Shown here: positions 17,289 to 46,094 of the stretch, in pieces
How positions within the stretch are numbered: position 1 is the stretch's first letter
Layout of the letters: every line of letters starts with the position of its first letter
Assembly (NCBI GenBank): GCA_023475025.1
Contig: JAMCWB010000030.1
Location: forward strand, 1,853-65,852
Length of the DNA stretch: 64,000 nucleotides
Direction: 5' to 3'
DNA from: Gammaproteobacteria bacterium
GTDB lineage: Bacteria; Pseudomonadota; Gammaproteobacteria; Pseudomonadales; Pseudomonadaceae
The notes under the pieces: generated by a model
What the model saw: the letters and a program-made list of their open reading frames with translations, nothing else
Databases searched by the model: none
What the model was told of the DNA's origin: nothing
Program-made: the position numbers and the translations under genes

Positions 17289-19082
17289 TTAACTTTCAAT
17301 ACTCAAAGCCCACCCCCTCCTGCCTAATGTCCGAAAGTCGCAACTCCCTGCAACCATTTGTTGATACTCGCGTGCGCCCTTAATTCCCCCGCGCAAGTAC
17401 CGATCGGATCCGCACTCAGCGCAATGAGCCTTGAATCCGGCTGGTTCCTGAAAAACAGGGCAAGCTGACCCACCGCATACAGGACAGACCTTCAATGCCC
17501 TGATCTCTTCGCTACGTTGTACCAGCTCATTCTCGAGCCGTATCGCATTGCCAGCCTTCAACACCTTATTCAGTTCGCCCAAGAGGTTTCCATCCAGCAC
17601 GTCCCTTACCTGGAGGGTTTTATTTTGTTGATCGACCCGCAGAGCAGAAGACCCCTTGGCCAGACTGAGAGCAGCAGTCGGGACTTTTATTAACGGTCGT
17701 CCATAGTTTTCCAACAGCAGTCCCTGCAAGACCCGATCAACCAATAAGCCAAATCGTTCCTCGCAGTACATATCCGAAGGGGAAAGCGGCACCCATTGCC
17801 CTTCAAAGGCGACCTGCGGCAGTTCTTGATCAAGTGCGGGCCAGGCGATGATCCGGTTGGTAGTAAGCTTCTGTTCAGAGGGGGCTTCCGCTGTCAGCCA
17901 AGGTACAACAGTCAGCAGTACCGCATCAGCGCTCACCAATTCCCACTCCAAGCCATTTTGTCGCAACGCCAGGGACCTGCCTGCCCAGTCCCCCTGGTCT
18001 TTCCCCCCTAGATACGGCTGCAGCGCTCGGCGTAAAACAAGGCCTGCGTAACGCGAATAAGCTTGAGCGAGATGCCGATTTCTTCTGAAACGCTCTTCAG
18101 CAGTTACTTTAGTTCCTGCCTGGCTGCGACCCAAAAGATCCCATAGAGCAGCCACATGCCGGTAGCTCGGATCATGGCTGAGGATATTCGTGCGATGCAA
18201 TCCGCTTTCAACCTGAGCGTTGCGGTCTACCAGCGTATACAGGCCACTTTGCTGCAACCCCCGGATTGCCTTTTGCAGGCTCTGCAGCGTGCTCAGTGAT
18301 TCATTCAAGAGCGCAGAGACTTTGCTGGTAGCACTCTGATCAAAGGTCCTACCCCATATATCACATACTGCATGGGCCAACCGATGATTGATATCGGCGG
18401 ACTCATAAAACTCCATAGCCTGGTCAAGTGTCGCCTGCAAACTACCAAGGGCCGATAGTCGATTACGCAGATGTCTGTCGATCTTGTCCAACAGCCTTGC
18501 GTATACACGGTTCTCGTAGATGCCGTAATCATCCTCACTGAAACGAGCCATTACCTTTCTTGGAATAACCCCGCTCAATGTTTGCCGCTGCCAATATTCG
18601 GAGTGGGACGCGAGGTGCACCAGCGCACCTTTTGACAACCTGCGTGCACGGGCTATATCTGTGACTTCATCCTCATAATGCATATCCAGTCGTGGTCGCT
18701 TGGAGATTCGGTGCAGATGCCCTTTGTTGAGCACCTCCCGCAACTTCTCTTCAAATGTCTGGAGATGTGCCTGATCATCTACAACTGCTGCTGGCATCAG
18801 AGGAGAAGGCAGCGTTTCCCCCTTCTGAATGTCAGCATCTATAGTGATAATTGCATTGAATAGCAGGTCGGCATTCGCAGTGTCGGCCTGTCCTGGAAGG
18901 ATGAAGGTTAGAATCTGCTTATCAAGCTGGCATCGCTGCCCACCGTCATCAACCAGTAGCCCCGAGAAGTCGGGCGTGTGACCATTCAAGGTGAGCCCTG
19001 TAGAGCCAGCCCAATAGCGCCCAGGCGCAACCTGCGGGGGCAGCGTCTTAAGCTGCGCCCCTGTCAGCCTATCCAACCACAT
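17289..19082 (-). CDS. McrC-like (DUF2357-type) partner protein with C-terminal zinc ribbon (CnuC-like)
   Basis: 597 aa with a 1-nt start/stop overlap on the McrB-like gene. DDYGIYENRVYARLL resembles the conserved ENR motif of McrC-family proteins. The C-terminal CPVCGG...CAECG is a zinc ribbon. No clear PD-(D/E)xK triad was seen by eye. Confidence 0.5.
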   Translation of the reverse strand: MWLDRLTGAQLKTLPPQVAPGRYWAGSTGLTLNGHTPDFSGLLVDDGGQRCQLDKQILTFILPGQADTANADLLFNAIITIDADIQKGETLPSPLMPAAVVDDQAHLQTFEEKLREVLNKGHLHRISKRPRLDMHYEDEVTDIARARRLSKGALVHLASHSEYWQRQTLSGVIPRKVMARFSEDDYGIYENRVYARLLDKIDRHLRNRLSALGSLQATLDQAMEFYESADINHRLAHAVCDIWGRTFDQSATSKVSALLNESLSTLQSLQKAIRGLQQSGLYTLVDRNAQVESGLHRTNILSHDPSYRHVAALWDLLGRSQAGTKVTAEERFRRNRHLAQAYSRYAGLVLRRALQPYLGGKDQGDWAGRSLALRQNGLEWELVSADAVLLTVVPWLTAEAPSEQKLTTNRIIAWPALDQELPQVAFEGQWVPLSPSDMYCEERFGLLVDRVLQGLLLENYGRPLIKVPTAALSLAKGSSALRVDQQNKTLQVRDVLDGNLLGELNKVLKAGNAIRLENELVQRSEEIRALKVCPVCGGSACPVFQEPAGFKAHCAECGSDRYLRGGIKGAREYQQMVAGSCDFRTLGRRGWALSIES

Positions 19083-21523
19083 TATCTGACATCCTCCAGA
19101 CGGCGAATATCAGCCTCCAGCAGCTGGTTGCAACTCGTTGGCTCACCGCCAAAGCCTGCATCAATCCAGAAAGTTTCCAGTGCATTCTGTACCGCTTTCA
19201 ATGCATCAAGGCTTACATCGTAACGACCGGTGACCTTGCCTTTTCGCATCACGCGCGTGGACAACAGGTGGTCCAGGGCTTCACCCTCGGACCCTCCCGC
19301 TGCCTTGATGACTGGGATGAAGCGCATTGCCTGCTTCTCAAAACGGTTCCCCCAACCCAAATCAAAATCCTTTTCCAGTAGTGTGGTCAAGGGGGCCTCG
19401 CTGAGCCATTTCAGCAAATCCCCGACCTCCTCCCCGTGCTTATTACATGCCTCATCAAAGGACTTGTTAAGTGAACTGTACGAAAAGCTTGTCGGATCGT
19501 AGCGCCTGACACCGAAGCGGTCGTCCTGCTTCGGCAGGGTCATCACATGAGCACGGTCATAGGTTTTATCGGCGAGCTCGTTAGTAGTTTCGTCATGGTT
19601 GGCAGTCCCGATAAACCAGACGTTACCCGGCACAAGTATTTTGCGCCCTTCGCGCAGCATCACCGGTGCATTAGGCATCGCCGTTTCCGCTAGACTGATC
19701 AACCTCTCGTCAGGGTTGTTCTTCTCAAGAGCGGACAAAAATTCAGCAAAATATTGCTCTGGCCGGGAGAGGTTCATCTCATCGAGCAGAATGACGTTAC
19801 AAGTATCCTTCCAGCGGGGCGTTTGAGCTTTATACAAGGCTTGCAGACAGTCCTTTTCATAAAAGCGCCGCTCGAAAGCGTTGTAATGGCCAAGCAAATC
19901 ATCACGGTCACGCCATCCTGCCTGCACAGCAATATCAGTACAGAACCCCCCCATTGCTTTAGCAAATGCTTTAGCCAGACTGGTTTTTCCTGTACCGCTG
20001 ATACCCTGAAAGACATGCAGCTGACTCATCGCCAGCCCACCGATCAGGGTACGAATATCTTCAAGACGATAAAACAGTTCAACGCTATCTTCTGCCTGGG
20101 CAATACGGTGCTGGAGCTCCTCAGCAAACTGCTCGAGCCCTGGCACAGGTTCATGCTCCATACTCGCGCGGTACTCCCGTTCCGTATCCATCAGCGACAT
20201 GGCCGGGAACGGCGTCTGGGTTTTCTGAGCGTTAGTCAGCTGATCAATACGGCTTTCAAGATCATCAATATGCACAGTCAGCGTGTTCTTGTGCTGTTCG
20301 AGTACACGTTTTTCGCGCGCTACAGCCTCAAGCTCAGTGGCAGCGACACGCCTCACGCTCAACTCACGTCTTAATTCGTCTCGCTCTGGCATAAGTGCCG
20401 CAAGATCCCGCTCAAGGTCAGCTTTACTACCACGCAGGTAATCGAGCTCTCGCTGTAGTTCGGCACTATCCGATTGTTCCAGCCGGCGTTTGAGAGAGTT
20501 ATTGTCCTGTCGCAAGTTATCGAGCTGCTCCAGAATGTCCGTCGCAGAGTGCTCACCAAGTGTCTGTTCCAACTCTCGCATACCCAAGAGTTGCTCCTTC
20601 AGCGCCTCGGTTTTCCCCCAAGCGCTGTCCAGCTGCCGCTCCAGCCTCGCCACAGCCTGCTCATGACTGGCGCGCTCCGCCTTCATTTCCAGGGTAACCC
20701 GCTGCTCCAGCTCTTGCTCTGCACCCTTGAGATCTGTCCATTCACGATCCAGCCTTCCACGGGCTCGATCCAGGTCCAGCTTGCTCTTACTTATTTCATG
20801 CTCGCGCTCATCTAGGAGCCTGACCCGCTTGGACTCCTCCTCTGAGCAGTTGAACTTGATCTCTGCCAGACGGCGCGCAGCCTCGCTCAGCTCGTCATCA
20901 AGCCTGCGCTTCTCATCTCTGAGCTCCTGCAGAATATCAGCCTGCTGTTTGAACAGCTCCTGCTGGCGCCGCTCAAGCTGACGCAGGGCCTGCTCATTCT
21001 GTTCCACAAAGCCAGCCTGGGCCTCGGCTTCACGCAGGCTCAGGGAGCGCCCAGTCTCCAAGAGTGCCGACTTCTGTTGCGCCAACTCAGCCTGTTCGGC
21101 AGACAGGGCGGCCCTTGCATCGTCATGGGTTTTTCTCTCCGCCTCGAGTGCGTCCCGCTCGATAACCAGCTTCTGCTCACGCTCCTCAATATCAGCAACC
21201 AGTCTGTTGGCTTCCTCCCAGCGACCGGAGTACTCATCCTTCAGTCGCTCCTTGAGTTTAACCAGCTCTTTACAGAATTCCGCGAAGCGCTCAATCCAAC
21301 GACCGAGCTCCGCATCCTCATCAGACTCGAATCTGTCCAGTACAACGCTCAGCCATTCCTGGTCGACAGGAATATCCATACTCATATCAAACGACTGGTA
21401 AACTTTGGAGGCACTCTCAAAAGACGCAGTCCACTTGTTATCCAACCCTGGGCGAGCCATTAAGACAGCGCCAGCCAACTGCTGGGCATTCTTGCTCGAA
21501 TTCTTCTTCGCCATTACATCCAT
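19082..21523 (-). CDS. Coiled-coil fused McrB-like AAA+ GTPase (CnuB-like)
   Basis: 813 aa. Residues about 80-440 are an E/R/L/Q-rich heptad-like coiled coil. The C-terminal AAA+ module has Walker A GISGTGKT, Walker B ILLDEMN and a McrB-type NxxD-like motif GTANHDET. Confidence 0.7.
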   Translation of the reverse strand: MDVMAKKNSSKNAQQLAGAVLMARPGLDNKWTASFESASKVYQSFDMSMDIPVDQEWLSVVLDRFESDEDAELGRWIERFAEFCKELVKLKERLKDEYSGRWEEANRLVADIEEREQKLVIERDALEAERKTHDDARAALSAEQAELAQQKSALLETGRSLSLREAEAQAGFVEQNEQALRQLERRQQELFKQQADILQELRDEKRRLDDELSEAARRLAEIKFNCSEEESKRVRLLDEREHEISKSKLDLDRARGRLDREWTDLKGAEQELEQRVTLEMKAERASHEQAVARLERQLDSAWGKTEALKEQLLGMRELEQTLGEHSATDILEQLDNLRQDNNSLKRRLEQSDSAELQRELDYLRGSKADLERDLAALMPERDELRRELSVRRVAATELEAVAREKRVLEQHKNTLTVHIDDLESRIDQLTNAQKTQTPFPAMSLMDTEREYRASMEHEPVPGLEQFAEELQHRIAQAEDSVELFYRLEDIRTLIGGLAMSQLHVFQGISGTGKTSLAKAFAKAMGGFCTDIAVQAGWRDRDDLLGHYNAFERRFYEKDCLQALYKAQTPRWKDTCNVILLDEMNLSRPEQYFAEFLSALEKNNPDERLISLAETAMPNAPVMLREGRKILVPGNVWFIGTANHDETTNELADKTYDRAHVMTLPKQDDRFGVRRYDPTSFSYSSLNKSFDEACNKHGEEVGDLLKWLSEAPLTTLLEKDFDLGWGNRFEKQAMRFIPVIKAAGGSEGEALDHLLSTRVMRKGKVTGRYDVSLDALKAVQNALETFWIDAGFGGEPTSCNQLLEADIRRLEDVR

Positions 21524-23001
21524 TCCTTAAAACATGCGGTAAAGCCCAGCGCGTACTGTATGCTGTCCAGCGCCATACGCGTCGTGAGTTGAATTGGTTC
21601 TTTCCCTGTGTATTCGCTCTGGGCGTGGCTGCTCTTGTTGCGCAGGTCGGCCACCTTCAGCAGCTTATCCAGTTGCAACTCGCTAGGACCTAGAGCCCTG
21701 AGCGGATGCCCCGGCTCATCGAGCGTACCCATTGCTGCAGCAAACAGCAGAGCCTTGAGCGAGGAAACTGGGCTGGAGCAAGCCCTGATCACCTGATCCA
21801 GACTCTGCCTTGAAAGCGCAACGCTTACCGGCCCGGTCAACGCAGGAACCGGCAGCGCAGAAAGGAGCTGTTGATTCAAACTGAAGTTGTTTTTTTTCAG
21901 CTTTGGCAACTGCCCCTCATTAGCTGGGTAAGTCCGGATCAGCCATTGCATGACCACTTCCAGCAGTTTCTGACTTTCCACCAGCGCGGCATCCAGCTCC
22001 TGCCCACTATGGTCATCCCTTAGTTTCTCGCGACGCACCAACAACGCGCCCAAATGGCGTTTGATATCTGGCTGCCGCTCTACCCAAGGATATTCAACCA
22101 GGATCTGAAACTCCGTTTGCTGTCGGAGTGCTTGCAACCACTGCTCCACGCTCTGCTCATCGGTACGTGGGATGCTTACGAGATTCTCAAGGTAAGTAAG
22201 GAGATGGGCGTTCTGCTCAACCAGCTGCAGAAATGCTTCGTTCAGCCACCAAGCGTTTTCACGCAGACCGAAGGGGTCCTTGACCGACCACAAATCCAGT
22301 CCGTCACTATCGCCAGTCACCCATACCAACACACGGGCGGATTGCGCAACATCATCCAACCGCTGCACACCCTGCAAACTGACCTGTTCAGGTAACCCGG
22401 TCCATTGGCCAAGCTGCTGGCTGGCGCTATAGTCTTCACGATAGTCACGATAAGCCCGCATCAAGGTGTCGTGGTCCAGCGCAGGCAACTCGGTGCGTGG
22501 CACTGAAAACTTGAAAGGCCTGTAGGTTTTACCTGTTCTTCGCTCCGTCAAGAACTCCGGAAAGTGGGCCAATGGGTCCACAGGCTCTATCTGGCTCAAC
22601 TGGACAACCAGCCGTGGCCAGAAGCGGCCATCTACTGCATCCTGCAGCAAATAACCGGATTTCATGTTGGTCTCAGCCACGTCCTCATCATCCAGCAAGC
22701 TCTCGCCTTTAGCTGTAAGCGCATCGGCGCTATCTACAAGCCATCCGTTGCTGACCCCTTGCGCAAGTATCAACTTGATCAGGTTAAGGTGGAGCCCGGT
22801 CAGAGCCGCCATATCTTCCGGGCGCGCGGTTCTTGCGCGCACCAGCCCCAGCACGGCGCGCTGTAACAGATTCAACTGCGACCGCTTTGGATCGGGATAC
22901 AGAACACGATGAACCAGTACGGGCCAGAGCAGCGACCGTTTCTTACCAAACGGTTTGGGGCCAAATGAGAGATACATACCAGACTCAGCGAAGACTGCCA
23001 T
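21514..23001 (-). CDS. wHTH-like / HEPN-motif protein (predicted RNase)
   Basis: Track ORF 21514..23085. The start was moved to ATG 23001, which is preceded by GGAGGTGAGC. The C-terminal ADLRNKSSHAQ is an Rx4H HEPN signature. The rest has no recognisable motif. Confidence 0.55.
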   Translation of the reverse strand: MAVFAESGMYLSFGPKPFGKKRSLLWPVLVHRVLYPDPKRSQLNLLQRAVLGLVRARTARPEDMAALTGLHLNLIKLILAQGVSNGWLVDSADALTAKGESLLDDEDVAETNMKSGYLLQDAVDGRFWPRLVVQLSQIEPVDPLAHFPEFLTERRTGKTYRPFKFSVPRTELPALDHDTLMRAYRDYREDYSASQQLGQWTGLPEQVSLQGVQRLDDVAQSARVLVWVTGDSDGLDLWSVKDPFGLRENAWWLNEAFLQLVEQNAHLLTYLENLVSIPRTDEQSVEQWLQALRQQTEFQILVEYPWVERQPDIKRHLGALLVRREKLRDDHSGQELDAALVESQKLLEVVMQWLIRTYPANEGQLPKLKKNNFSLNQQLLSALPVPALTGPVSVALSRQSLDQVIRACSSPVSSLKALLFAAAMGTLDEPGHPLRALGPSELQLDKLLKVADLRNKSSHAQSEYTGKEPIQLTTRMALDSIQYALGFTACFKEWM

Positions 23002-26000
23002 GCTCACCTCCACACATCTGGTGGAACGCAGCCAGAGCGGGTACCGCCTCTTGTGCCTCCGGGGCGGTAGCCAGCGCTGAGTCACCGACGCAGATCAACA
23101 TTTGCCTCTGACGGCTCATGGCAACGTTCATACGGTTGGGCAGCCTCAAGAACCCAAATTGCCGGTTGAGCTGCTTTTCCCGCTCGGCATCCCCCTCACT
23201 TCCCTGCCCCGGTGTTACAGGTTTATAGGTTCGAACACATGACAACAGCACAACATCAAACTCCTTGCCCTGGAACGCGTCGACAGAGCCAACCCGTAGC
23301 CGCTCTTCAGAGTTGACGGAGCCGTCCCCGCGCACCTTTCTTGTCCATTTGAAGATCTCATGGGGTTCGTAAGCTCCGTTGCGCAGCACCATCAGCGGTA
23401 CGCCATCGATGCGCTGCTCAGAGAGCTTCTCCATGATCAACTCGCGCTGTGCTGCATAGAAGGTTATGACACCCACCGATAGACTATCGCCACCAGCCTG
23501 CAGCAACCTCACTACCTCCTCGGCAATGCGCAGCGCCTCTACCTCCCTCACGCGACTTGTGCCTGAGCGCATCTCCTTACCCTGCCCCGCAGGCACATCT
23601 ATCCACTGGCAGACGCGGTCACGATAATGGCTAGCCAAAGGGCCAAGTCCGGCAAGGAAAGTCTCAGAAAAAACAAAATCCGCGGCGTCACGACCAGAAC
23701 GAATTCGCCCCAGCCCTTGGGATTCGTAAAATTGAGTACTTATAAAGTCACCAAGTAATGGGTGCATCCGGAACTGGGTGTCCAACATAACCACGCGACG
23801 GATATTGTCCTGCCTTTCAAGATCTTGCAGCTTGATACGCATTCGCTCGAACAGGCTCGAGCGAAAGGCCGCCAACTGCAGCTCGGTAAGCTGGTGCTCC
23901 GCCTGCAGCTGGCCCTCGATATCTGGCTCCAGCATGTGTGGTAACTGTCTGTCATCCCCGACCAAGACTATTCGGCGCTTTGCCATGGCCATAGGCACAA
24001 ACAGATCCAACGGGTTGGCACGGGCAGCCTCATCAATAACCACGGTATCAAATTCGATATCCGTGCTATCCAGATTCGATACTGATTTGAGGTTTGCCAT
24101 CTGCCTTCCTGCTGCCTGCTGGCAGGTAGCACCAACCACCATTGAATACTCATGCACGACCGCCTGTGCGGCGGCCCGGTCAATCGCCAGGCTATCCGCC
24201 AGCTGCTCCAGCACCCCGGCTACCCCCTGCTTACGCTGGCGCAGCCGGGTCTCCAGGTGTCGTTCAATCTCATCCAGCAGTGCCACCCCCTCTGGATCTG
24301 CCTGCTGCCTCAAGCTCACTGGTCGATAATCTGGCATATAAAGATCAAGTAACCGAGGCTTCCAGGCAGCCAGGTTTTGCAGCGTGGAGTCTTGAGTCTC
24401 TGTGCTATCCGCCGCCTCTTCCAGCACAGCAAACAGATCCGGATTGGTGTCTATGCCTTGACGCTTCAACCAACTGAGCAGGTCCCATGCGCGGTCCGGG
24501 CCATCGTCGTTAAATGAGGTCTCATCGACGCGAAGCGCTCTAACCCTTCTCAGAACCTGAACATTATGACCATCAACCGAAGTAGTAGGCGCCTGCCTTT
24601 GCAGTTGCTCGATGTACTCCTCGACCTGACTTTCAAGCCGCGGTGGCATTACCAAGCCACTTACCTCCAGCTCGCGCAACCCGTTCAAAATGCTCACGAA
24701 GCTCTCAGCCTGACTCCCGGGCGAAGCACCGGCAATTCTTGCCAAAGCCAGTTGGGTCGACAGATTCCGGACAAGCTCCAGTTCAGGATATTTGCCGTAC
24801 TGCTCGATCACCTTACCCTGCAGATGCTCGACCTGACGATCCAGCCATGGATCAATCAGGGAATCTTCTTCCTGCGCTCCCCGCTTACCACCCACTCGAG
24901 CCCCGGGCAGGCCAAACACATCGCTACGATCCAACGCGTTATCGACGGCGTCATGCTGGAAACTGCTGATCAGCACTTGCGCAGCAATATTATTCTCTTC
25001 AGCCTCTTCCGCGAGGCGGCGCTGCAGGGCTGCTATGACCTGAGTCTTACCGGTTCCTGGGGGGCCAATTATGATGGCCATATCAGGCGTGTTCAGTGCC
25101 GTATCCAACGCCAGGATCTGCTTCTCAGTGGGCTTGCCTCCCTTGAAGGTTTCCAATGCATACGGCGTCAGCCCCTTGATTGGACGGCGCCTGGAAGCGG
25201 GCACAGCCACACCTTCCAGCAACCACTTCAACTGGGGTAGTCGTTTCCCGGAATCAATCGACTGTTTTGCTGCCAGACGACGTTTACCCACCGTCCGCTG
25301 GCCGGCCAGCGACAGATAGATCCAGCCCTCAGGCTTTCTAGGGCGAATACTGCGGCGATTTGAAACTGGCTTGAAAACAACGCAGTTCTGCTCAAAGCGA
25401 ATTGTGCCCCGCGGATTATCCTGCTCAGCCTTCACTTCATCCGTAGTCAGTTCCTCAGCCCAGTCAGGGCGATCAACGCTGAGATCGACCTGCGTGCCTG
25501 CAGCAAGGTCCAGGTTGCGCCAACGTGAACGAAACTCTCTGTAATCGTCCAATGAGGCTGGCGTCAGTCGCCAGACGTTTTCGCGGCCCTCTTCATGCCC
25601 TTCCCATTCCACAAAGCGCAGGGCACGCAAGGTTTCAGCCTGAGTCAGCGCGGTTTGCCACTCCCTATCGTTGTAGAGATTCCATAGCTCCAGATAACTG
25701 GCACTGTCGCGCAACGCTGCATCAAGCGCCGCCCGATAACCAGGGCTGGCAAGAACAGCGGCAACCGACGCATCACGAAACGCAAACTGACCCAGGAGCA
25801 ATGAAAAGGCACCATCCCGGCGCGTATGACGGGTAATTCGCTTGATCAGTAACCCTTGATCCGCGCCCTGTTGCACATCTGCCCGCCAGCCCTTGCCCAC
25901 CAGCTGGAAAGCGCCACGGGATGTGCTGTTACTGAATCGTGCCACTGTGAGCCAGTCGCCCTCAGCTTGGTCGCGCACAAGAAAAGTCTCAGCCAACCAA

Positions 26001-26374
26001 TCGCAGGCCAGCTCAATACGCTGGTCGGGGATTTCCTGCTTGCTGTAGAGGTCTTCCACTATCAGCTCATCAACTCCGAGCTCAAGCTCCATGGCAGAAA
26101 TCTCAACTGGCGCACAGTACTGCACCAAAAGCTTGTCAGCCTGTTTGCTAGTGAGCAGCCAGCGTGTCTGATCCCTTAGAACCAAGCGGCTGAACAGGCC
26201 ATGATCAGCCCTCGCACAACTGACTCGAATCCGTTCATCTTTCTGCACAGCCAGCCATTCATCTTGATAGGCCTGCAGAAGCATCGCCTGCCCCACTTGA
26301 AAGCCGTCTGTTGATTCATCTGAGCTGAGAACCAGGACATCCTCGGACAGCAGGGGAAAGTGTTTAAAGTCCAT
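22985..26374 (-). CDS. Upf1/DNA2-like SF1B helicase with about 430-aa unknown N-terminal region (CnuH-like)
   Basis: 1129 aa. Helicase motifs are IIGPPGTGKT, VVIDEAARA, VLVGDDRQLP, VDAFQGKEFDVVLLS and NVAMSRQRQMLICVGD. Confidence 0.8.
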   Translation of the reverse strand: MDFKHFPLLSEDVLVLSSDESTDGFQVGQAMLLQAYQDEWLAVQKDERIRVSCARADHGLFSRLVLRDQTRWLLTSKQADKLLVQYCAPVEISAMELELGVDELIVEDLYSKQEIPDQRIELACDWLAETFLVRDQAEGDWLTVARFSNSTSRGAFQLVGKGWRADVQQGADQGLLIKRITRHTRRDGAFSLLLGQFAFRDASVAAVLASPGYRAALDAALRDSASYLELWNLYNDREWQTALTQAETLRALRFVEWEGHEEGRENVWRLTPASLDDYREFRSRWRNLDLAAGTQVDLSVDRPDWAEELTTDEVKAEQDNPRGTIRFEQNCVVFKPVSNRRSIRPRKPEGWIYLSLAGQRTVGKRRLAAKQSIDSGKRLPQLKWLLEGVAVPASRRRPIKGLTPYALETFKGGKPTEKQILALDTALNTPDMAIIIGPPGTGKTQVIAALQRRLAEEAEENNIAAQVLISSFQHDAVDNALDRSDVFGLPGARVGGKRGAQEEDSLIDPWLDRQVEHLQGKVIEQYGKYPELELVRNLSTQLALARIAGASPGSQAESFVSILNGLRELEVSGLVMPPRLESQVEEYIEQLQRQAPTTSVDGHNVQVLRRVRALRVDETSFNDDGPDRAWDLLSWLKRQGIDTNPDLFAVLEEAADSTETQDSTLQNLAAWKPRLLDLYMPDYRPVSLRQQADPEGVALLDEIERHLETRLRQRKQGVAGVLEQLADSLAIDRAAAQAVVHEYSMVVGATCQQAAGRQMANLKSVSNLDSTDIEFDTVVIDEAARANPLDLFVPMAMAKRRIVLVGDDRQLPHMLEPDIEGQLQAEHQLTELQLAAFRSSLFERMRIKLQDLERQDNIRRVVMLDTQFRMHPLLGDFISTQFYESQGLGRIRSGRDAADFVFSETFLAGLGPLASHYRDRVCQWIDVPAGQGKEMRSGTSRVREVEALRIAEEVVRLLQAGGDSLSVGVITFYAAQRELIMEKLSEQRIDGVPLMVLRNGAYEPHEIFKWTRKVRGDGSVNSEERLRVGSVDAFQGKEFDVVLLSCVRTYKPVTPGQGSEGDAEREKQLNRQFGFLRLPNRMNVAMSRQRQMLICVGDSALATAPEAQEAVPALAAFHQMCGGEHGSLR

Positions 26375-30503: not shown

Positions 30504-30520
30504 AGCGAACATCGTGCCAA
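30504..30520 (-). promoter_or_regulatory. Sigma-54 (-24/-12) promoter P2
   Basis: The minus strand reads TTGGCACGATGTTCGCT, with correct GG-N10-GC spacing. It is about 60 nt upstream of the small-protein ATG and matches P1 at 16 of 17 positions. Confidence 0.65.
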
Positions 30521-30590: not shown

Positions 30591-30612
30591 AATATTACAT
30601 TTTGGTAATATT
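30591..30612. promoter_or_regulatory. AT-rich inverted repeat about 85 bp upstream of P2 (candidate enhancer/UAS)
   Basis: AATATTAC-N6-GTAATATT, followed by a third TATTAC. Confidence 0.35.
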
Positions 30613-30646
30613 TATTACCGCCACACAGTTGCCTTGGGAGGCGGCG

Positions 30647-31561
30647 CTACTCCTCAAAATAATCCGAGTCCAACCGTTTCACCTCGTAGGTCGCTATCGT
30701 GGAGACTCCAACCCCGGTGTCGATCATCAGGCTCACCAGCTTCTCGCCGTCAATCAGCACGATACGGGTATCAATGAGCGAGGCATACTCTATCGCTTCT
30801 GAGCTGAAGCTGGATGTAGTCAGGAAAACCCCTTTCTTGGCTCTCTGGCCCTGGAGCGCGCCGGCGAATTTCTGTATTTCGGGGCGGCCTACGGTACCTT
30901 CCCAACGCTTGGCCTGCAGGTAGATGACATCCAGGCCGAGCCGATCTTCCTTGATAACGCCATCAATACCGCCGTCGCCGGAGCGGCCGAGCGTCTGTCC
31001 TGCGTCCTTGCGCGAGCCGCCATAGCCGAGCCTTACCAGCAGCTCGACGACCAGGCGCTCGAAGAATGCTGGGGACGCAGCCTTGATTCTGGTTATGAGT
31101 TCTTCCTTTAGCTCCTCACGGACGGTCTGATAACCAAACTCCATATGTTCCGATGGTGTCAGTGTGTCCGTTTCGATGGAGCCCACCGGGGTGGCTGCTG
31201 CAGGCTTTTCGGGTTTGCTCCCCGACTGGAACGCTGTGTACTCATCAAACTGGCGCAGGTAGGACATATTTATTGGAGCTGCATCCTGCGCCAGCGCCTC
31301 CAGCCCTCGCTGGGTTATCCGATAGCGGGCTCGGCTGGGCGATTCAATCAGGCCGGCACCTTTGAGATGGGTTTTTGCCCAGCCTATGCGGTTATCAAAC
31401 AGCCGTGCGTAGCCACTGGGCAGCATTTCGGCCAGCTCGTCCTCGGTCAGCTGAAAATACCCGGCAAGATACTCGTTGGTTTCACGATTAGTCCGCACCG
31501 CTCCGTCAGCGAGGTGCTCCAGCAGAGGGCGCATGATTGTCTGGAAGTCGGGTATTGCCAT
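30647..31561 (-). CDS. mrr: Mrr-family type IV restriction endonuclease
   Basis: N-terminal Mrr_N-like wHTH and C-terminal catalytic core GDGGIDGVI...LQAKRW. Confidence 0.85.
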   Translation of the reverse strand: MAIPDFQTIMRPLLEHLADGAVRTNRETNEYLAGYFQLTEDELAEMLPSGYARLFDNRIGWAKTHLKGAGLIESPSRARYRITQRGLEALAQDAAPINMSYLRQFDEYTAFQSGSKPEKPAAATPVGSIETDTLTPSEHMEFGYQTVREELKEELITRIKAASPAFFERLVVELLVRLGYGGSRKDAGQTLGRSGDGGIDGVIKEDRLGLDVIYLQAKRWEGTVGRPEIQKFAGALQGQRAKKGVFLTTSSFSSEAIEYASLIDTRIVLIDGEKLVSLMIDTGVGVSTIATYEVKRLDSDYFEE

Positions 31562-34385: not shown

Positions 34386-35450
34386 TCAATTGTCCTGTTG
34401 TGGTGTATCTGATTGGTATCGGGCGGCTGCTTCCTTCAGGCGCAGCACTCTTTCCCGTTCGCGCTCCAGTTCCCGTGCCAGTTCCTCTTCAGTGGGCAGG
34501 GCTGTGAGGTATTTGGAGGCGAACAATTGCTTGCTTTCGCTGAGCACGGAGTATTTGGCGACGGTGTTATTGCGCTCGCTGCACAGAATCAGCCCGATGG
34601 TCGGGTTGTCGTCGGGGCGGCGTTTGTGTTCTTCATACATGCGCACATACATGTCCATCTGGCCCACGTCCTGGTGGGTGAGCTTGTGCATTTTCAGGTC
34701 GATCAGCAGAAAGCATTTGAGATGAAAGTTGTAGAACACCAGATCGATGAAGTAGTCGCCGTCATCGGTGCGGATGCGTTGCTGGCGTTCGACGAAGGCA
34801 AAGCCCTTGCCCAGCTCCAACAGGAACTGCTGCAGGTTGGAGATGATGCCCTGTTCGAGGTCGCTTTCCTGCCAGGTTTTATCCGGCAGGTTGAGAAAGT
34901 CGAGGATGTAGGGGTCGCGCAGGTAATGTTTGGGATCATCCTGCAGCGGCTCGGTTTTCTCCTGTGCTTCCTGCTCGACAGTGGACTTGTCCTTGCTGGC
35001 GAGCAGGCGCTCGTAATACAGCGTGCCGATCTGGCGCTCCAGTGCGCGGACGCTCCAGTTCTCATCCGCCGCCTCATCCGCATACCACTGCCTGGCAGCA
35101 GGGTTCTCAATACGCATCAGGGTTCGATAGTGGCTCCAGCTCAAAACACTACGCAGTGTGTAGTGTTTTGGGAAAGTCAGGTAGAACTGCCGCATATTGC
35201 GCAGGTTGCCCACATCAAACCCTTTGCCAAACTCGGCCTGCAGGCGCTCTGACAACTGTTTGAGCTGCTGCTTGCCGTACTCTGCCCGCTGCTGCCCTTG
35301 CTGCTCCTGCTCTACAATCAAGCGGCCGATATGCCAGTAGGCCTGAACCATGTGCTGGTTGACCGCCTGCCTGACCTGCTGGCGGGCCTGGGCAATGACT
35401 TCTGCTATGGCCTGATAAAGCGTGCCCGGCACCAGATCCTTACTGGCCAT
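34386..35450 (-). CDS. YhcG/DUF1016-type PD-(D/E)xK nuclease-like protein
   Basis: Start placed at ATG 35450 (AGGAGG 7 nt upstream) within track ORF 34386..35489. The core reads [20 protein letters not shown]. The gene is inserted between hsdR and hsdM. Confidence 0.8.
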
Positions 35451-38400
35451 GCTGAGCCTCCTGCTTGATGAATGGTTCAAGCACTGCAATCAGATCGCCG
35501 ACGTCATCCGGCGTGAACACACCGTCGATGCCCTCATGGGAAATGCTGTCGAAGGGAGGCTCATAGAGTTTGTCGACAACGATGCTGCCGTGTTGGGCTA
35601 TATAGTTTTTCAGCAGGTTCATAAAGCGCACCTGCTGGGCGGTCAGCGTCGGGTGGTTGTGCAGGAAGCGCTTGAAGTGCTCCTCGATGGCCTGCGGGTC
35701 AAGCCCGATAATCTCGCGCACGGTCAGGTGCAGCTGATCGGCAGTGCGCCCGTAGAACTCATTGAGCACCTCCAGGCTGACGCCGGGGTGGCTGGTGAGG
35801 ATGGTCGAGGTCAGGGTTTTCAGCTCCGGCTCGGCAATCGGCTCACCCTGGCGGATTTTCTGCAGGGTCGGGTTAGCAGCCAGCATGGCGTCAAGGATGT
35901 CCTTAAGCCGACGGCGGTAGATCATGGCTTCGTTGGCGCCAGCGATATACACCTGACGCTCATTGTTCTGGATGTTGCCATCACGGGTGCGCGTGCTGCC
36001 GATGTCGTAGCCGGGGCCCGTGCCGCTCTGGCGGTATTTCATGATGCTGCGCAACTCCTTGCGGGCATGCTCCAGCTTGGCAATGCTCGGCTGCTGCCAG
36101 AACGCAGCACTGCGTACTTCGGCAATCACTGCATCCTTCTGGCGCACGGCATTGATGTTCACTGCGAGCCTATCCAGCTCGGCCAGCAGTTCGGTCTTTC
36201 CGTCCTCGAAGCAACTGGCCTGCACTACCAGACAGCACTGAATACCGGCGATCAGCTTGTCGAAGGCCGTCGCGTGCTTGTCACGCAACACCCGGGCGGA
36301 CATCAGCGGGGCAATGGTGTTGCTCAACAGGTGTTGGGTTTTGCTGTCGAGTGTCTTGAGCATCGGAGTTTGTTGCAGCTGGTGCACCACCCGCAGCTCA
36401 CGCTTAACCGCCACACTGGTGTCCGGCAGATCATTGATGTCTGCCTGCAGCAACTCGACGGCCACATCAAAGGCGTCAGCGTGGTTGGCCTTGAGCGCGG
36501 CCTGCGCCAGTTGCAGGCGCGCTTCGAAGGTGGTCTGCAGCAGCGACTTGCTGCCGGTGTCCTCCGGCTCCAGGTATTCCTGCTCGAAGAAATCGAAGTT
36601 GCCGTAGTGATCGAAAATGAGGAATTCGCTCTTGTGCTTGCCCGGCCCAAACAGATTGGGACGCAGGCGGGTGCCGCGGCCGATCATCTGCCAGAATTTG
36701 ACCCAGCTCTTCACTGGTTTGGCAAAGACCAGATTGACTACCTCGGGTACGTCGATGCCGGTGTCGAGCATGTCCACCGAGATGGCGATACGGAAGTCGT
36801 TGTCCGGTTTCTTGAATTCCTTGATCAGTGTTTCCACATGCGGAATGGCGTTGTGGATCACCTTGCAGACCTTGCTGCCATATTGCGGATACAGCTTGCA
36901 GAACAGTTTTTCCAGGTGCTCGGCATGATCCTGACGCTGGGCGAAGACGATGGTCTTGCCCACCAGTGAGCCAGTGTCATCCTGGATGCCATTATTGATC
37001 AGGTTCTCGAGGATGATGCGGTCGGTGTCTTCACTGAAGATCTTGCGGCCGATGTCCTTGCCGGCGATGGTGGTCTGCCGGGCTTCTTCCTCTCCCAGGT
37101 CCTCTTCCAGCTGACGTTGCTGTGCTTCGCTGAGCTGGCTGTAATGGATGCCGTCACGCAGAAAATCGGTGGTCAGGTCCTTGACCCGGAAGGGCACCAG
37201 ATAGGGTGGCTCGTTGTTGATGGCCGCATCCAGCCCGAATTCAAAGGTCGGGTCGGTGGTTTCACAGTCGAACAGGTCGAAGGTATTGCGACTGATGAAT
37301 TTAACCGGTGTCGCGGTCAGCCCGACCTGCATGGCATCGAAGTAATCAAACAGGTCGCGGTACTTGTTGTAGATGCTGCGATGGCTTTCGTCGGCGATGA
37401 TCAGGTCGAAAAAGCCAACATCCAGCTGGGCAAAGCGGTTCATCATGCCCGGATAGGTGGCAATGAAGATGCGAGCGGTCTGATCCACCTTGCTGGTTTC
37501 ACCAATGACGCAACGCGGCTCACTGGGGAGATTCTGCTTGAAGGCATCATCGGCTTGCACGCGCAGTTCCTTGCGATCACAGAGAAACAGCACGCGCTTG
37601 GCCCAGCCGGTACGCAGCAGTAATTCCGCTAGGGCGATGGCAACACGGGTCTTGCCCGTGCCAGTGGCCTGAATGATCAGCGCCTTGCGCCGCTGGCTCT
37701 GGAAGTGCGCGGCGACAGTCTTGATTGCTTCGATCTGGTAGGGCCGATCGGCAATGCTCAACTGCGGGTTGTGCTTTTCCAGCGCCTGGACCCGATATTG
37801 GCGCTGGTAAATCAGGTATTCCAGGCTGTCCTTGCTGTAGAGGCCGTACACCGGGCGATAGGTGTTGTACTGGGCATCGTCCCAGATGAAGGTTTCATAG
37901 CCGTTGCTATAGAAAATTACTGGCCGCTGCATGCCCATGCGTTCAAAACCATCGGCATACATACGCGCTTGTTCACGTCCAGCTTGCAGGCTGACGTTGC
38001 CAGACTTCTTCGCCTCGATCACGGCGAGTGGCTGGCCGTTGTCGCCCCACAGCACATAGTCAGCACGACCTTTACCGGACGGGTTATCCGGGAAATCCAC
38101 CTCGACTTCATGCCCTACCTGCGCAGGGTTAGCCACATCCCAGCCGGCCTGCAGCAGCATCGCATCAATCAATAGGGTTCGGGTCTTGGCTTCATTCCAC
38201 TGCAGGCTGTCGGCTACCTGCTGGCTCTCGCGTTGGCGTTTCTGTTGATCGGGGCGGGCCGGCGGCTCAAGCTTCTCAATATTGCGGGTGCGCTGCTGTT
38301 CCAGCTCGGCAATCACCTGCTGCAAGGCTTCCTGCTTCTGGGACAGCTCTTTTTCGTAATTGGATACCGACTGCTGCAACCCCTTGATGGCCGCCGTGGG

Positions 38401-38835
38401 GTCGGCAACCTCAACAAACTCGGGAATGGTGTCGTGCTGCACACCGTAGTATTTGACGGCCATATACATGGCCAGCTGGTGCGATGTCTTCAATGCCAAC
38501 TGGGCATTGCGCAGGTCGCCTTCCGCACCATGGGCGGCGTCATTGCCCTGGATACGCAAAAAATTGATCTGATGGATCAGCGATTTGCTCACGCAGTCGG
38601 CAAATACCGGGTTTTTCACCAGATCGTAAAAGCTGGCCTGGGGCAGACGTGGAAGCGTCTCTTCCTTGTAGATGGTTTTGGTCAGCTCTTCGGCAAAGCT
38701 GCGCAACCGGGTCAACGCGCTGCCGGGGTCGACATGCAGTACCGCTTCGGCCAGCCCGCCAAGATTGGCCAGCACTTCATTGCCGGGGCGCAGAAATTCA
38801 AAATTCACTGATGTCATAAAGGCTATTGTGTCCAT
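35440..38835 (-). CDS. hsdR: Type I restriction enzyme R subunit with N-terminal DUF4145-like module
   Basis: Nuclease GRADYVLW...VIEAKKS, helicase QATGTGKT and ADESHRS, and an EcoEI-R-type C-terminal domain. The N-terminal 110 aa carry RIQGNDAAHG. The start is uncertain (38835 or Met7 at 38817). Confidence 0.9.
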   Translation of the reverse strand: MDTIAFMTSVNFEFLRPGNEVLANLGGLAEAVLHVDPGSALTRLRSFAEELTKTIYKEETLPRLPQASFYDLVKNPVFADCVSKSLIHQINFLRIQGNDAAHGAEGDLRNAQLALKTSHQLAMYMAVKYYGVQHDTIPEFVEVADPTAAIKGLQQSVSNYEKELSQKQEALQQVIAELEQQRTRNIEKLEPPARPDQQKRQRESQQVADSLQWNEAKTRTLLIDAMLLQAGWDVANPAQVGHEVEVDFPDNPSGKGRADYVLWGDNGQPLAVIEAKKSGNVSLQAGREQARMYADGFERMGMQRPVIFYSNGYETFIWDDAQYNTYRPVYGLYSKDSLEYLIYQRQYRVQALEKHNPQLSIADRPYQIEAIKTVAAHFQSQRRKALIIQATGTGKTRVAIALAELLLRTGWAKRVLFLCDRKELRVQADDAFKQNLPSEPRCVIGETSKVDQTARIFIATYPGMMNRFAQLDVGFFDLIIADESHRSIYNKYRDLFDYFDAMQVGLTATPVKFISRNTFDLFDCETTDPTFEFGLDAAINNEPPYLVPFRVKDLTTDFLRDGIHYSQLSEAQQRQLEEDLGEEEARQTTIAGKDIGRKIFSEDTDRIILENLINNGIQDDTGSLVGKTIVFAQRQDHAEHLEKLFCKLYPQYGSKVCKVIHNAIPHVETLIKEFKKPDNDFRIAISVDMLDTGIDVPEVVNLVFAKPVKSWVKFWQMIGRGTRLRPNLFGPGKHKSEFLIFDHYGNFDFFEQEYLEPEDTGSKSLLQTTFEARLQLAQAALKANHADAFDVAVELLQADINDLPDTSVAVKRELRVVHQLQQTPMLKTLDSKTQHLLSNTIAPLMSARVLRDKHATAFDKLIAGIQCCLVVQASCFEDGKTELLAELDRLAVNINAVRQKDAVIAEVRSAAFWQQPSIAKLEHARKELRSIMKYRQSGTGPGYDIGSTRTRDGNIQNNERQVYIAGANEAMIYRRRLKDILDAMLAANPTLQKIRQGEPIAEPELKTLTSTILTSHPGVSLEVLNEFYGRTADQLHLTVREIIGLDPQAIEEHFKRFLHNHPTLTAQQVRFMNLLKNYIAQHGSIVVDKLYEPPFDSISHEGIDGVFTPDDVGDLIAVLEPFIKQEAQHGQ

Positions 38836-38846
38836 GCTGGTTGAAT

Positions 38847-38863
38847 AGCGAAGATCGTGCCAA
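38847..38863 (-). promoter_or_regulatory. Sigma-54 (-24/-12) promoter P1
   Basis: The minus strand reads TTGGCACGATCTTCGCT, with GG-N10-GC spacing. It begins 3 nt after the activator's stop codon and ends 12 nt before the hsdR ATG. Confidence 0.65.
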
Positions 38864-38865
38864 CA

Positions 38866-40350
38866 CTATTCAATGCCGTACTTCTCCATCCAGTTAGTCA
38901 GCGTTTGCTGGCTTTTCAGACCCAGTAATTTGGCTGCTCGGGTCTTGTTACCTGCTGTCTGCTGCAGTGCCTGCTCTAGGTAAGGGCGCACAAATTCGCC
39001 AAGTAGCGCTTGTATATCAATGCCTTGAGAGACATCGAGCCCAGTTGACTTGTCCATCTTAGCAGGCATATCAAACAACGCACCGGCCATATCCTGTTGT
39101 TCGATAGTATCACCTTGGCACCAAAGTGCAGCCCGCACTAGTGTCGCTTGCAGTTCACGAACATTTCCTGGCCACGCATGCTGAAGTACAAGTTTTTTTC
39201 CTTCAGCAGAAATTTTCTTACCGGCCAGAGCGGTATCCTGCCTGCCGATTACCGCCAGCAGCGCTTCGCACAGCAGCAACAAATCACCCTCCCGCTCCCG
39301 CAAAGGCGGCAGATGCAGTACGCCCACTGCAACCCGGTAAAATAGATCTTCACGAAAGCAACCCGCTGCAACATCCGCCATCAGATTGCGGTGGGTCGCA
39401 GCAACCAGCCGGACATCCACACGTTGCTCTACTGACCCGCCCACTGGCGTACACACCCCTTCCTGCAACACTCTCAGTAGACGGACCTGAACGTCGGCCG
39501 CCAGCTCACCAAACTCGTCAAGGAAAAGGGTGCCACCGTCAGCCTGCTGGAAAACCCCAAGCCGGTCAGCAATGGCACCGGTAAAAGCCCCCTTTTTGTG
39601 ACCAAACAATGTTGAGTCGATCAACTCGGAAGGAATGGCGCCACAGTTCACCGCTACAAAGGGCTTGGCTGCTCGCGGCCCAGCATTATGGATCGCCCTG
39701 GCAAACAGCTCTTTGCCGGTACCGGTTTCACCATAGATCAGCACAGGTACCAGCTTTTGCGCTAGCACCTCTGCCTGCTGCTTAAGCAACAGCATGGTTT
39801 TATTTCGCGTGATGATATTGTCGAAGGCCGCATTAACCGGTGCCGCCTGCATGAGCATGTTGTTCAAACTGGCGGCACTGATTTCTGCGGCAGCCGGCAC
39901 ATACTCCGCAGCGATCTCAAAGGGTATGTCGATCTGCTGAACGCCCTGCTCCAGCGAGGATTGGTAATAGAGGGCGGGATAGCGCGTCTTGCCCAGCAGA
40001 ATCCATACTGCCTGCATCGCAGGCGTACCCGGACTGAGCAAAATGGCCAGAGGCTCACCGCTGCTCTGCAGCCTGCGCAAATGACGCTCTGCAGCCTGAT
40101 AAATCTCGGCAAAGTTGACCGGTGAGCTCAGGGGCTCGTGGTAAACATTCAGCGGCGTTTCGGTATTCTCCGCCAGCCAGGCGCGGTAGCTCTCCAGCTG
40201 CTCTGGCGGATAGGAACAAAGCAGTTCAGCCCTGGCAAAGCTGCCAGCATGCAATGTAGAAAGCACAGGGCCCGGCAGACCGCCAGCCGGCGCTTTGAGA
40301 TCATTCCCGCCAATCCAGCTCACCAGAATCGGCAACTGCTTTTTCACCAT
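38866..40350 (-). CDS. RtcR-like sigma-54-dependent activator (CARF - AAA+ - Fis HTH)
   Basis: The N-terminal CARF-type signature LLSPGTPAMQAVWILLGKTRYPALYYQSS parallels E. coli RtcR HITTGTHVAQICWFLL. The AAA+ module has GETGTGKE and GAFTGA. The C-terminal HTH reads NKTRAAKLLGLKSQQTL. ATG 40350 is preferred over TTG 40362. Confidence 0.8.
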   Translation of the reverse strand: MVKKQLPILVSWIGGNDLKAPAGGLPGPVLSTLHAGSFARAELLCSYPPEQLESYRAWLAENTETPLNVYHEPLSSPVNFAEIYQAAERHLRRLQSSGEPLAILLSPGTPAMQAVWILLGKTRYPALYYQSSLEQGVQQIDIPFEIAAEYVPAAAEISAASLNNMLMQAAPVNAAFDNIITRNKTMLLLKQQAEVLAQKLVPVLIYGETGTGKELFARAIHNAGPRAAKPFVAVNCGAIPSELIDSTLFGHKKGAFTGAIADRLGVFQQADGGTLFLDEFGELAADVQVRLLRVLQEGVCTPVGGSVEQRVDVRLVAATHRNLMADVAAGCFREDLFYRVAVGVLHLPPLREREGDLLLLCEALLAVIGRQDTALAGKKISAEGKKLVLQHAWPGNVRELQATLVRAALWCQGDTIEQQDMAGALFDMPAKMDKSTGLDVSQGIDIQALLGEFVRPYLEQALQQTAGNKTRAAKLLGLKSQQTLTNWMEKYGIE

Positions 40351-40464
40351 CCATGCCCCCAAACAGCCATTCTTGTCTGTCCACTACACAAGCCAACAGA
40401 ACTGCTTAGTGCTCAGCTCACTACAACCTGAAAAGCTCAGCCATCACAACGCAGTTTATGCCAT

Positions 40465-40725
40465 TCAATTGCTACGGCCTTGGTCATCAAGGTCACTGAC
40501 TCGCTCGCTAGGAACGTATTCAACCAAGTCTTCTATCTTGCAATCAAAGTAACGGCACAGCCCATCAATATGCTCAGTACTGGTGCTGAATCCCCGCCGA
40601 TTGATCATCTTCGACAAGGTTACCCGGTGGATGCCGGCACCCTCCGCCACTTCCGCGATGGTAATGCGGCGCCCCTCCTCAAACTCCCTGCGGGCGATCA
40701 TTTCTTTGATCTTGAAACGAAGCAT
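40465..40725 (-). CDS. XRE-family HTH regulator
   Basis: 86 aa with the HTH ITIAEVAEGAGIHRVTLSKMINRR. It is divergent from the xis/int genes. Confidence 0.8.
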   Translation of the reverse strand: MLRFKIKEMIARREFEEGRRITIAEVAEGAGIHRVTLSKMINRRGFSTSTEHIDGLCRYFDCKIEDLVEYVPSERVSDLDDQGRSN

Positions 40726-43468: not shown

Positions 43469-43613
43469 GGGAGGTCAGTGCTGCCATGGTTGTACGTCAG
43501 CCGCAAGCTTGACTTGGGCGAAAGCCATGCCAGTATAAATACTGATTATCCATACAGCTTTATGGCGAAAGGTAAGCCTTTAGCCCGCTATCAGTTTCCT
43601 ATCGGAGCTTAAT

Positions 43614-45605: not shown

Positions 45606-46094
45606 TCAACAGCCGTGCAAAAGCCGCTCTCGCAGCCGTTGTACTGTCTGTTCGCAGGACAAACCCAACGCGGGATCAGCATGAATCAGTTGAGGCAGCT
45701 TCTCGTCGGGCCAGCCTCGGGCATCATCATCAATGGCCAGCCAGTCGCAGGGTGAGTTCATTCGAGCCAGATAGGCCTGAATCTGCTCGTAGCGTGTCTG
45801 TAGGTCCCAAAACGTTGCTGCTCCAGATTCGCCGATTTTCATTTTTGAGTGCCAGGTGGCGCCAACCACCAAAGCTCTTAAGCATTCCGGTAACGCATTG
45901 CAGGCACGCCTGAATCCGAGATGACGTGCCCAACTCGTTGACAGGACAATCCTCACATCAGCGCCCTCAATCGCTGACAGTAGCTGTGGTACCCACATGA
46001 AAAGCTCACCCGGTCCACGCAGCACCGGGCGCCCGCGCTTCAGGTAGACCTCGTCAGGGTGCAGCACCCCGTCATAGTCCAGGAACAACAGCAT
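45606..46094 (-). CDS. HAD-like phosphatase of the RNA-repair associated (HAD_SAK-like) type
   Basis: Start at ATG 46094 (AGGAGG 5 nt upstream) gives MLLFLDYDGVLHPDEV, placing the DxD nucleophile motif at the N-terminus. The C-terminal WLAIDDD is also present. Confidence 0.55.
   Translation of the reverse strand: MLLFLDYDGVLHPDEVYLKRGRPVLRGPGELFMWVPQLLSAIEGADVRIVLSTSWARHLGFRRACNALPECLRALVVGATWHSKMKIGESGAATFWDLQTRYEQIQAYLARMNSPCDWLAIDDDARGWPDEKLPQLIHADPALGLSCEQTVQRLRERLLHGC

Follow-up and report, generated by a model that had tools for sequence, protein, structure and literature searches.

An open reading frame at 38866–40362 on the minus strand of the 64-kb stretch of DNA analysed here (contig JAMCWB010000030.1; in the following, the window) codes for an RtcR-like enhancer-binding protein, the gene of which stands at the 5' end of a series of co-directional restriction and abortive-infection genes. 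In our best explanation, which we regard as likely, this regulator belongs to the RtcR_PspF2 family and is a paralogue of the RNA-repair regulator RtcR that was recruited to the control of anti-phage defence, and would serve as a CARF-type activator of two sigma-54 promoters, P1 in front of the restriction operon and P2 in front of the abortive-infection operon.

Family assignment of the regulator

The reading frame was present as described in an earlier note made from the DNA letters, and translation probably begins at the ATG at 40350, before which the sequence GGGGG is found. The resulting length of 494 amino acids agrees with the gene calls on 14 metagenome contigs bearing an identical protein in the same context. 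Pfam matches were obtained for Sigma54_activat (residues 179–343, E 2e-64), AAA_lid_14 and HTH_8 (residues 455–491), and the AAA+ part shows the motifs expected of sigma-54 activators, namely Walker A (GETGTGK at 207), GAFTGA at 254 and Walker B (LFLDE at 275); its best solved relatives are NifA, ZraR, FleQ and NtrC. Together with the modelling of the N-terminus described below, these matches bear out the domain order given in the earlier note, i.e., a CARF-like N-terminus, a sigma-54 AAA+ domain with GAFTGA and a Fis-type helix-turn-helix (HTH) domain.

The best NCBIfam model for the protein was that of RtcR (NF038308), which reached 318.5 bits over residues 65–484 only, whereas the cut-off of this equivalog model for RtcR proper is 650 bits. 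In PADLOC, the RtcR_PspF2 model (PDLC01995, CARF_AAA_HTH) matched over its full length with 677.9 bits and an E value of 2.5e-204 (residues 8–494 against model positions 3–481 of 481), compared to 192 bits for the RtcR model of the same collection. Judged by its sequence, the regulator is therefore an RtcR homologue but not RtcR itself. A tblastn search of the 64-kb window with RtcA and RtcB of E. coli gave nothing better than E 0.18, so the linkage to rtcBA that characterises RtcR proper is not found there. Both the absence of rtcA and rtcB from the window and the placement of hsdR 30 nt downstream of the regulator had been claimed before and were confirmed, the ATG of hsdR at 38835 lying exactly 30 nt past the regulator stop codon.

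Two predicted sigma-54 promoters on the gene strand

The promoter core of P1, TGGCACGATCTTCGCT, lies in the 30-nt gap between the regulator stop codon and the ATG of hsdR, and that of P2, TGGCACGATGTTCGCT, lies 127 nt past mrr, before the yuaX-like and TIR genes. Both are intergenic and on the gene strand, they differ in only one of 16 bases, and their predicted start sites are at about 38836 and 30493, respectively. A position matrix trained on other loci, with the window left out, scored P1 with 27.0 and P2 with 21.8, compared to a background maximum of 16.3. A further sigma-54-like site at about 43516–43533 on the minus strand scored 15.3, which is within the background, and was discarded. 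In the window alone, the pattern TGGCAC-N5-TTGCW with up to two mismatches was found 42 times versus 53.6 times expected. This count is not above chance, and P1 and P2 are supported instead by their position, their mutual identity and their conservation.

To assess the latter, we used loci from a genome scan with the N-terminal domain, which yielded 336 relatives in a species-level genome set, of which the best 80 loci were kept. A strict sigma-54 motif was present 1–26 nt past the regulator stop codon in 60 of 76 related loci. With a slightly stricter motif, 64 matches were obtained downstream of the regulator on the gene strand, nearly all of them within about 30 nt of the stop codon, versus three downstream on the other strand and one per strand upstream (about 0.6 Mb per region). 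About 60 of 77 loci have hsdR, hsdM and hsdS after the regulator, frequently with a variable insert, and P2-equivalent promoters occur upstream of the gene for the von Willebrand factor A (vWA) protein in other loci. P1 and P2 are therefore strong, conserved candidates for −24/−12 promoters served by the regulator, and would be expected to depend on RpoN as well as on the regulator itself. The two promoters named in the earlier note, P1 and P2, thus held up in terms of near-identity, matrix scores and conservation, and control of the restriction and abortive-infection genes by the regulator is supported as far as in silico tests reach.

In the relatives, an inverted repeat brackets the −12 element of P1 (columns 13–18 with 25–30 of alignment A2, e.g., GGTCCT...AGGACC). 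Its changes between genera are compensatory, with 80% of the cells paired, versus 28–54% when the partner was slid, and 28 double changes counted versus 8–14. The repeat is missing from the P1 sequence of the window itself; where it is present, read-through RNA may fold into a hairpin there. The promoter of a distant family branch (about 48% identity) takes the form TGGCACGGATGGTGC(A/T)TAA and coincides with the 3' end of the regulator gene, taking in its stop codon and the codons just before it (L092:21500-21520, L140, L145, L147, L153, L156 and L172). This beta-proteobacterial group counts a Rhodoferax plasmid and numerous metagenome contigs among its members.

A candidate enhancer upstream of P2

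A pattern search revealed a single perfect GGTAA-N6-TTACC dyad in the window, GGTAATAAATATTACC, which is located 100 nt upstream of P2 and represents a candidate enhancer (upstream activating sequence). The dyad is found 78–101 nt upstream of P2-type promoters not only in the window but also in L015/16, L024/L091, L082 and nine metagenome loci (L093, L108, L112, L113 and L115–L119), and it also precedes the P2-type promoters of the metagenome loci L100, L105, L109 and L114. With no more than about 16 independent dyads of the GGTAA type in 1.5 Mb, this placement before P2-type promoters is far from chance. The 9-mer AATATTACC was also tried as a motif; it was not enriched (11 matches versus 10.3 expected overall), and the dyad took its place.

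In the rtcB-rtcR intergenic region of E. coli (L001:5080-5268), the sequence TTAC-GGAC-GTAA is located 69 nt upstream of the sigma-54 promoter of rtcBA, and a GGTAA sequence lies about 100 nt upstream of the promoter; both resemble the half-sites of the dyad. We regard TTAC-N4-GTAA as a weak lead to a half-site shared with the dyad.

The N-terminal CARF domain

Pfam gave no match for residues 1–178 even at E 10, the RtcR domain included. The NCBIfam RtcR model nevertheless aligned from residue 65, and a BLASTP alignment with RtcR of E. coli K-12 covered the regulator from residue 74 onward (34% identity, E 4e-49), with LSPGTPAMQAVWILLGKTRYPA of the regulator placed against ITTGTHVAQICWFLLAEARYLPA of RtcR. 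A profile of the N-terminal domain matched residues 1–194 of E. coli RtcR in hhalign with a probability of 95.7% (E 8.6e-9). An AlphaFold2 model of the domain reached a pLDDT (predicted local distance difference test) value of 85.4, and its top 50 Foldseek matches in the PDB were all CARF proteins (best E 1e-5, TM score 0.65), comprising Csm6, Cam1, Can2, Card1, Cad1, ring nucleases and VC1899. Going by alignments, profile and model, the N-terminus is thus a CARF domain of the RtcR type, and the refuting condition set in the earlier note, an N-terminus that would not model as CARF, did not come about.

Residues S106, G108 and T109 showed no variation in the alignment. They belong to the motif SPGTPAMQ, which deviates from the usual CARF motif after strand 4 ([DN]x[ST]xxx[RK]) in having Gln113 where a basic residue is expected. 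The counterpart of Gln113 is also a glutamine in the corresponding RtcR motif TTGTHVAQ, and the RtcR branch typically lacks the basic residue after strand 4 (Makarova et al. 2014, PMC4012209). Because Gln replaces the Lys or Arg of CARF domains binding cyclic oligoadenylates (cOA), the sequence leans towards a ligand of the RtcR type. By analogy with RtcR, the input signal would be RNA with a 2',3'-cyclic-phosphate end or a cyclic nucleotide.

The start codon of hsdR

The position of P1 has consequences for the translation of hsdR. In 47 of 57 P1 sites, the GC of the −12 element is followed by the first ATG of hsdR at a distance of 12 nt, and in five others at 13 nt. This spacing places the ATG at about +2 of the predicted start site, and no Shine-Dalgarno sequence precedes it. 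Because of this placement, the hsdR mRNA is probably leaderless or carries a 1-nt leader, and would be made solely when P1 fires. The six codons before the second ATG of hsdR (M-D/N-R/K-I/V-x-F/Y) vary mostly at third positions, the reading frame before the second ATG is kept, including a 3-nt deletion in L052 and L054, and in L077 and L065 a leader with a Shine-Dalgarno sequence precedes the same first ATG. On these grounds, the alignment suggests that the first ATG is the real start.

This arrangement may be read as a fusion of the promoter to the hsdR start codon, by which HsdR would be produced from the leaderless transcript born at P1 only. In transcripts reading through from the regulator's own promoter, the hsdR ATG would be internal, without a ribosome-binding site, and in many relatives beside the hairpin mentioned above, so that read-through could yield methylase without nuclease. 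We consider this a tentative and rather doubtful idea. If true, it would mean that modification is constitutive and restriction is switched on by an RNA-damage or infection signal, which would be a new route to an inducible Type I restriction-modification (R-M) system without self-restriction.

Proposed mechanism and alternatives

For the regulation of the locus, we propose that the CARF domain would keep the AAA+ ATPase off until a ligand arrives, as in RtcR. This ligand would most probably be an RNA fragment with a 2',3'-cyclic-phosphate end, which infection or the HEPN RNases of the CoCoNuT system itself could generate. The activated hexamer would then remodel sigma-54 RNA polymerase at both promoters of the same strand, with P1 driving hsdR-yhcG-hsdM-hsdS-mrr and P2, served by the dyad, driving yuaX-TIR, the TerY-P triad and the Type II CoCoNuT genes. 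The repression of the ATPase by the CARF domain and the identity of the ligand are modelled on RtcR, and the mechanism as a whole is the one we judged likely at the outset.

Several points weigh against this mechanism. The main gap is that no enhancer site was found for P1: the GGTAA-N6-TTACC dyad was not found near this promoter, the last 150 nt of the regulator gene showed coding conservation only, and the 300 nt upstream of the regulator contained no common k-mer outside one Pseudomonas cluster. RtcR of E. coli is activated only when RtcA and RtcB are bound to its CARF domain (PMC9650030), and because these partners are missing here, the analogy with RtcR may fail at the input step. Moreover, if hsdM and hsdS were transcribed solely from a sigma-54 promoter that is silent, the host would lack methylation when induction sets in, and a scan for sigma-70-like sequences identified no constitutive hsdMS promoter. 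The lone sigma-70-like match, at 34389–34362, runs into the hsdM reading frame in a scan performing at chance level and was rejected as an hsdM promoter. Finally, a literature search found no experimental study of a regulator of the RtcR_PspF2 type in the searchable literature.

We weighed three other explanations of the locus. The regulator might be a normal RtcR acting on rtcBA in another part of the genome, its adjacency to hsdR being incidental. RtcR is indeed its best NCBIfam match, and the identity of 34% to the E. coli protein points the same way, but a score so far under the RtcR cut-off, the clear preference of PADLOC for RtcR_PspF2 (678 versus 192 bits), the lack of rtcA and rtcB in the window and the recurrence of a sigma-54 promoter and hsdR after the gene in about 60 of 76 genomes from many genera render this highly improbable. 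Alternatively, the CARF domain might sense a cyclic oligonucleotide or another nucleotide messenger instead of damaged RNA. The island offers possible sources in its TIR protein and a Type II cyclic-oligonucleotide-based anti-phage signalling system (CBASS), and the closest solved folds are the cOA-binding CARF domains of Csm6, Cam1, Can2 and Card1. Yet the glutamine of SPGTPAMQ is that of RtcR and replaces the Lys or Arg typical of cOA binders (cf. PMC4012209), the CBASS genes lie past an integrase on the other strand, and the TIR gene is not found beside the regulator in the 77 related loci, which cover about 9 kb downstream, where the recurring partners are R-M and TerY-P/CoCoNuT genes. We therefore regard a nucleotide messenger as unlikely.

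The regulator may also serve mainly in establishment or dosage control of HsdR, like the C-proteins of Type II R-M systems, keeping HsdR off until methylation is achieved, independently of infection. Such a role would fit with P1 lying directly at hsdR and with the hsdR ATG lacking a Shine-Dalgarno sequence, and in the absence of a terminator between regulator and hsdR, read-through could provide low amounts of hsdMS transcript while HsdR stays untranslated. However, the ribosome-binding site of hsdM is weak (AGGA 16 nt upstream), the same type of promoter with its own enhancer drives methylase-free TerY-P/CoCoNuT modules, the regulator heads CoCoNuT genes without any R-M genes in many loci, and a simple timing circuit needs no ligand-sensing CARF domain. 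Establishment control is thus very unlikely as the main function, and a signal-responsive activator of both operons is the explanation we prefer.

Relation to known systems

The regulator resembles RtcR of E. coli and Salmonella, the activator of rtcBA, in the order of CARF, sigma-54 AAA+ (with GAFTGA) and HTH domains, in the CARF motif type G-T-x-x-x-Q after strand 4, and in the sigma-54 promoter adjoining its gene. It differs from RtcR in its presumed targets, which are restriction and abortive-infection genes instead of rtcBA, in its score under the NCBIfam cut-off and the missing Pfam RtcR domain, and in the absence of the activating partners RtcA and RtcB (PMC9650030) from the window. The promoter is also arranged differently, being co-directional and abutting the stop codon in the window and divergent in E. 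coli.

An RtcR-like family consisting of a CARF domain, an NtrC-type AAA+ domain and an HTH domain, which is linked to R-M instead of Rtc genes, was described by Makarova et al. (2014, PMC4012209). According to their prediction, the family activates downstream genes via sigma-54 upon sensing either 2',3'-cyclic-phosphate RNA or a phage nucleotide. Bell et al. (2024, PMC11090510) reported that an RtcR homologue often stands at the head of Type II CoCoNuTs, with Type I R-M and other systems in between, forming co-directional superoperons especially in Pseudomonas, and proposed the same signal together with a feedback loop via HEPN cleavage products. The locus in the window agrees with these descriptions in its 5' regulator, the co-directional Type I R-M genes, the TerY-P triad, CnuH/E/B/C and the taxa involved (Pseudomonas and relatives), as well as in the full-length match to RtcR_PspF2. 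Unlike the superoperons described, it contains mrr, yhcG and yuaX-TIR as additional inserts. In both studies, regulation was inferred from gene order and no promoters were located (the word 'promoter' occurs once in PMC11090510), and a 2025 preprint presents an island of P. aeruginosa with the same genes, the regulation of which was untested there.

Family and architecture have both been described before, so the locus is not a discovery in kind: defence arrangements headed by RtcR homologues are already known from comparative genomics, and the window provides a good testable example. What is new are the positions and conservation of the sigma-54 promoters, the internal P2 with its conserved dyad and the joining of promoter and start codon at hsdR.

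Other regulators of defence loci, namely the CARF-HTH protein Csa3 of CRISPR loci and WYL-domain regulators, are repressors or activators of the sigma-70 type. They likewise couple a sensor for small molecules or nucleic acids to the transcription of defence operons, whereas the regulator of the window would work via sigma-54 and an ATPase. Because of this mode, its promoters should be fully silent when not activated. Anti-phage systems are usually treated as constitutive. In a widespread family with 336 relatives, a damage-sensing CARF activator appears to switch on DNA restriction and RNA-targeting abortive infection via sigma-54, a route that would result in all-or-none control of defence. 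The hypothesis was published in 2014 and again in 2024, and the placed promoters, the candidate dyad and the presumed leaderless start make direct testing possible.

Gene content and related loci

All genes from 40350 down to 17289 are encoded on the minus strand with the regulator at the 5' end (Table 1). The locus shows the features of a CoCoNuT superoperon, i.e., an RtcR homologue 5' of co-directional defence genes, the TerY-P triad as defined by Bell et al. (2024, PMC11090510), and CnuH, CnuE, CnuB and CnuC, which were assigned by domains, motifs and the descriptions in the same paper. HsdR additionally contains an N-terminal DUF4145 domain (residues 29–105) before its HSDR_N, ResIII and EcoEI_R_C domains.

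Table 1. Coordinates of the regulator, its domains, the predicted control sites and the neighbouring genes.
Feature	Position	Strand	Basis or remarks
RtcR-like enhancer-binding protein, PADLOC family RtcR_PspF2 (CARF + sigma-54 AAA+ + Fis HTH)	38866..40350	-	494 aa
CARF sensor domain, ~residues 1-150, conserved motif SPGTPAMQ at 106-113	39901..40350	-	AF2 model, Foldseek, hhalign
Sigma-54 interaction AAA+ domain and lid, residues 179-432	39055..39816	-	Pfam, motifs
Fis-type HTH_8 DNA-binding domain, residues 455-491	38878..38988	-	Pfam
P1, putative sigma-54 promoter core	38847..38862	-	
P2, putative sigma-54 promoter core	30504..30519	-	
Candidate enhancer, perfect dyad	30604..30619	.	pattern search
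XRE-type HTH gene, 86 aa, directly upstream of the regulator, co-directional	40465..40725	-	Pfam
hsdR, Type I restriction subunit, EcoAI/EcoEI-like	35440..38835	-	ResIII, HSDR_N, EcoEI_R_C
YhcG/DUF1016 PD-(D/E)xK nuclease-like gene, an insert separating hsdR from hsdM	34386..35489	-	Pfam
hsdM, methylase subunit	32774-34378	-	Pfam
hsdS, specificity subunit	31617-32777	-	Pfam
mrr, Type IV restriction endonuclease, final gene of the first operon	30647..31561	-	Pfam
yuaX-like small gene	30146-30430	-	
TIR effector gene, CAP12/Pycsar type	29253-30149	-	PADLOC PDC-S35
vWA gene of the TerY-P triad	28482-29168	-	Pfam VWA
PP2C phosphatase of the TerY-P triad	27790-28482	-	Pfam PP2C_2
Ser/Thr kinase (STK) of the TerY-P triad	26381-27790	-	Pfam Pkinase
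Type II CoCoNuT core	17289..26374	-	CnuH, CnuE, CnuB, CnuC
CnuH, UPF1-like helicase, 1129 aa	22985-26374	-	AAA_11/AAA_12, IGHMBP2 family
CnuE, 523 aa	21514-23085	-	RNKSSH HEPN motif near C-terminus (one RxxxxH)
CnuB, coiled-coil McrB-like AAA protein	19082-21523	-	AAA_5 and SMC-like coiled-coil matches
CnuC, McrC-like	17289-19082	-	DUF2357

The nearest genome with a related locus is that of Halopseudomonas yangmingensis, the N-terminal domain being 92% identical. The gene order vWA-PP2C-STK-CnuH-CnuE-CnuB follows directly after the regulator in five loci, in metagenomes the regulator is found directly upstream of many TerY-P/CoCoNuT loci, and CoCoNuT genes of the same order and sizes as in the window are present in L015, L059, L092 and more than 70 metagenome loci. 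None of the 77 related loci, which reach only about 9 kb downstream, was found to have the genes for TIR, YuaX or Mrr beside the regulator. A homologue of the XRE-type gene upstream of the regulator occurs in six of about 77 related loci and is an occasional partner only.

In Marinospirillum insulare (L059:11464-11800), P1 and the first approximately 20 codons of hsdR persist as a remnant, followed by a P2-type promoter and the vWA gene; the R-M cassette that would have separated the two promoters has apparently been lost by deletion. Many TerY-P/CoCoNuT loci contain a small conserved reading frame beginning with MGFAKYQEDIVSRYV between promoter and vWA gene (L092:21553-21700, L135–L137, L139, L140, L142, L143, L145, L147, L153, L156, L160 and L172); at this place, the window contains a different small gene, the yuaX-like one, together with the TIR gene.

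A tRNA-Arg gene is located at 16804–16880, to the left of which lies housekeeping DNA from cyaA to a uvrD/rep-like helicase gene. Direct repeats of the tRNA-Arg gene were looked for in the window as possible borders of the island, and none were found. The far side of the regulator contains the XRE-type gene, an integrase gene, further accessory genes and the Type II CBASS. Three adjacent genes at 45606–47527 on the minus strand code for an RNase T-like exonuclease, a calcineurin-like phosphoesterase and, as the third product, a protein carrying the HAD domain of 'Swiss Army Knife' RNA-repair proteins, and this trio may represent an RNA end-healing set in an island otherwise devoid of rtcA and rtcB. 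The CBASS, which belongs to a neighbouring element past the integrase, is complete (48012–52720, plus strand) and comprises an HNH-SAVED effector, a CD-NTase (SMODS), an E1/E2-like ThiF protein and a JAB protease.

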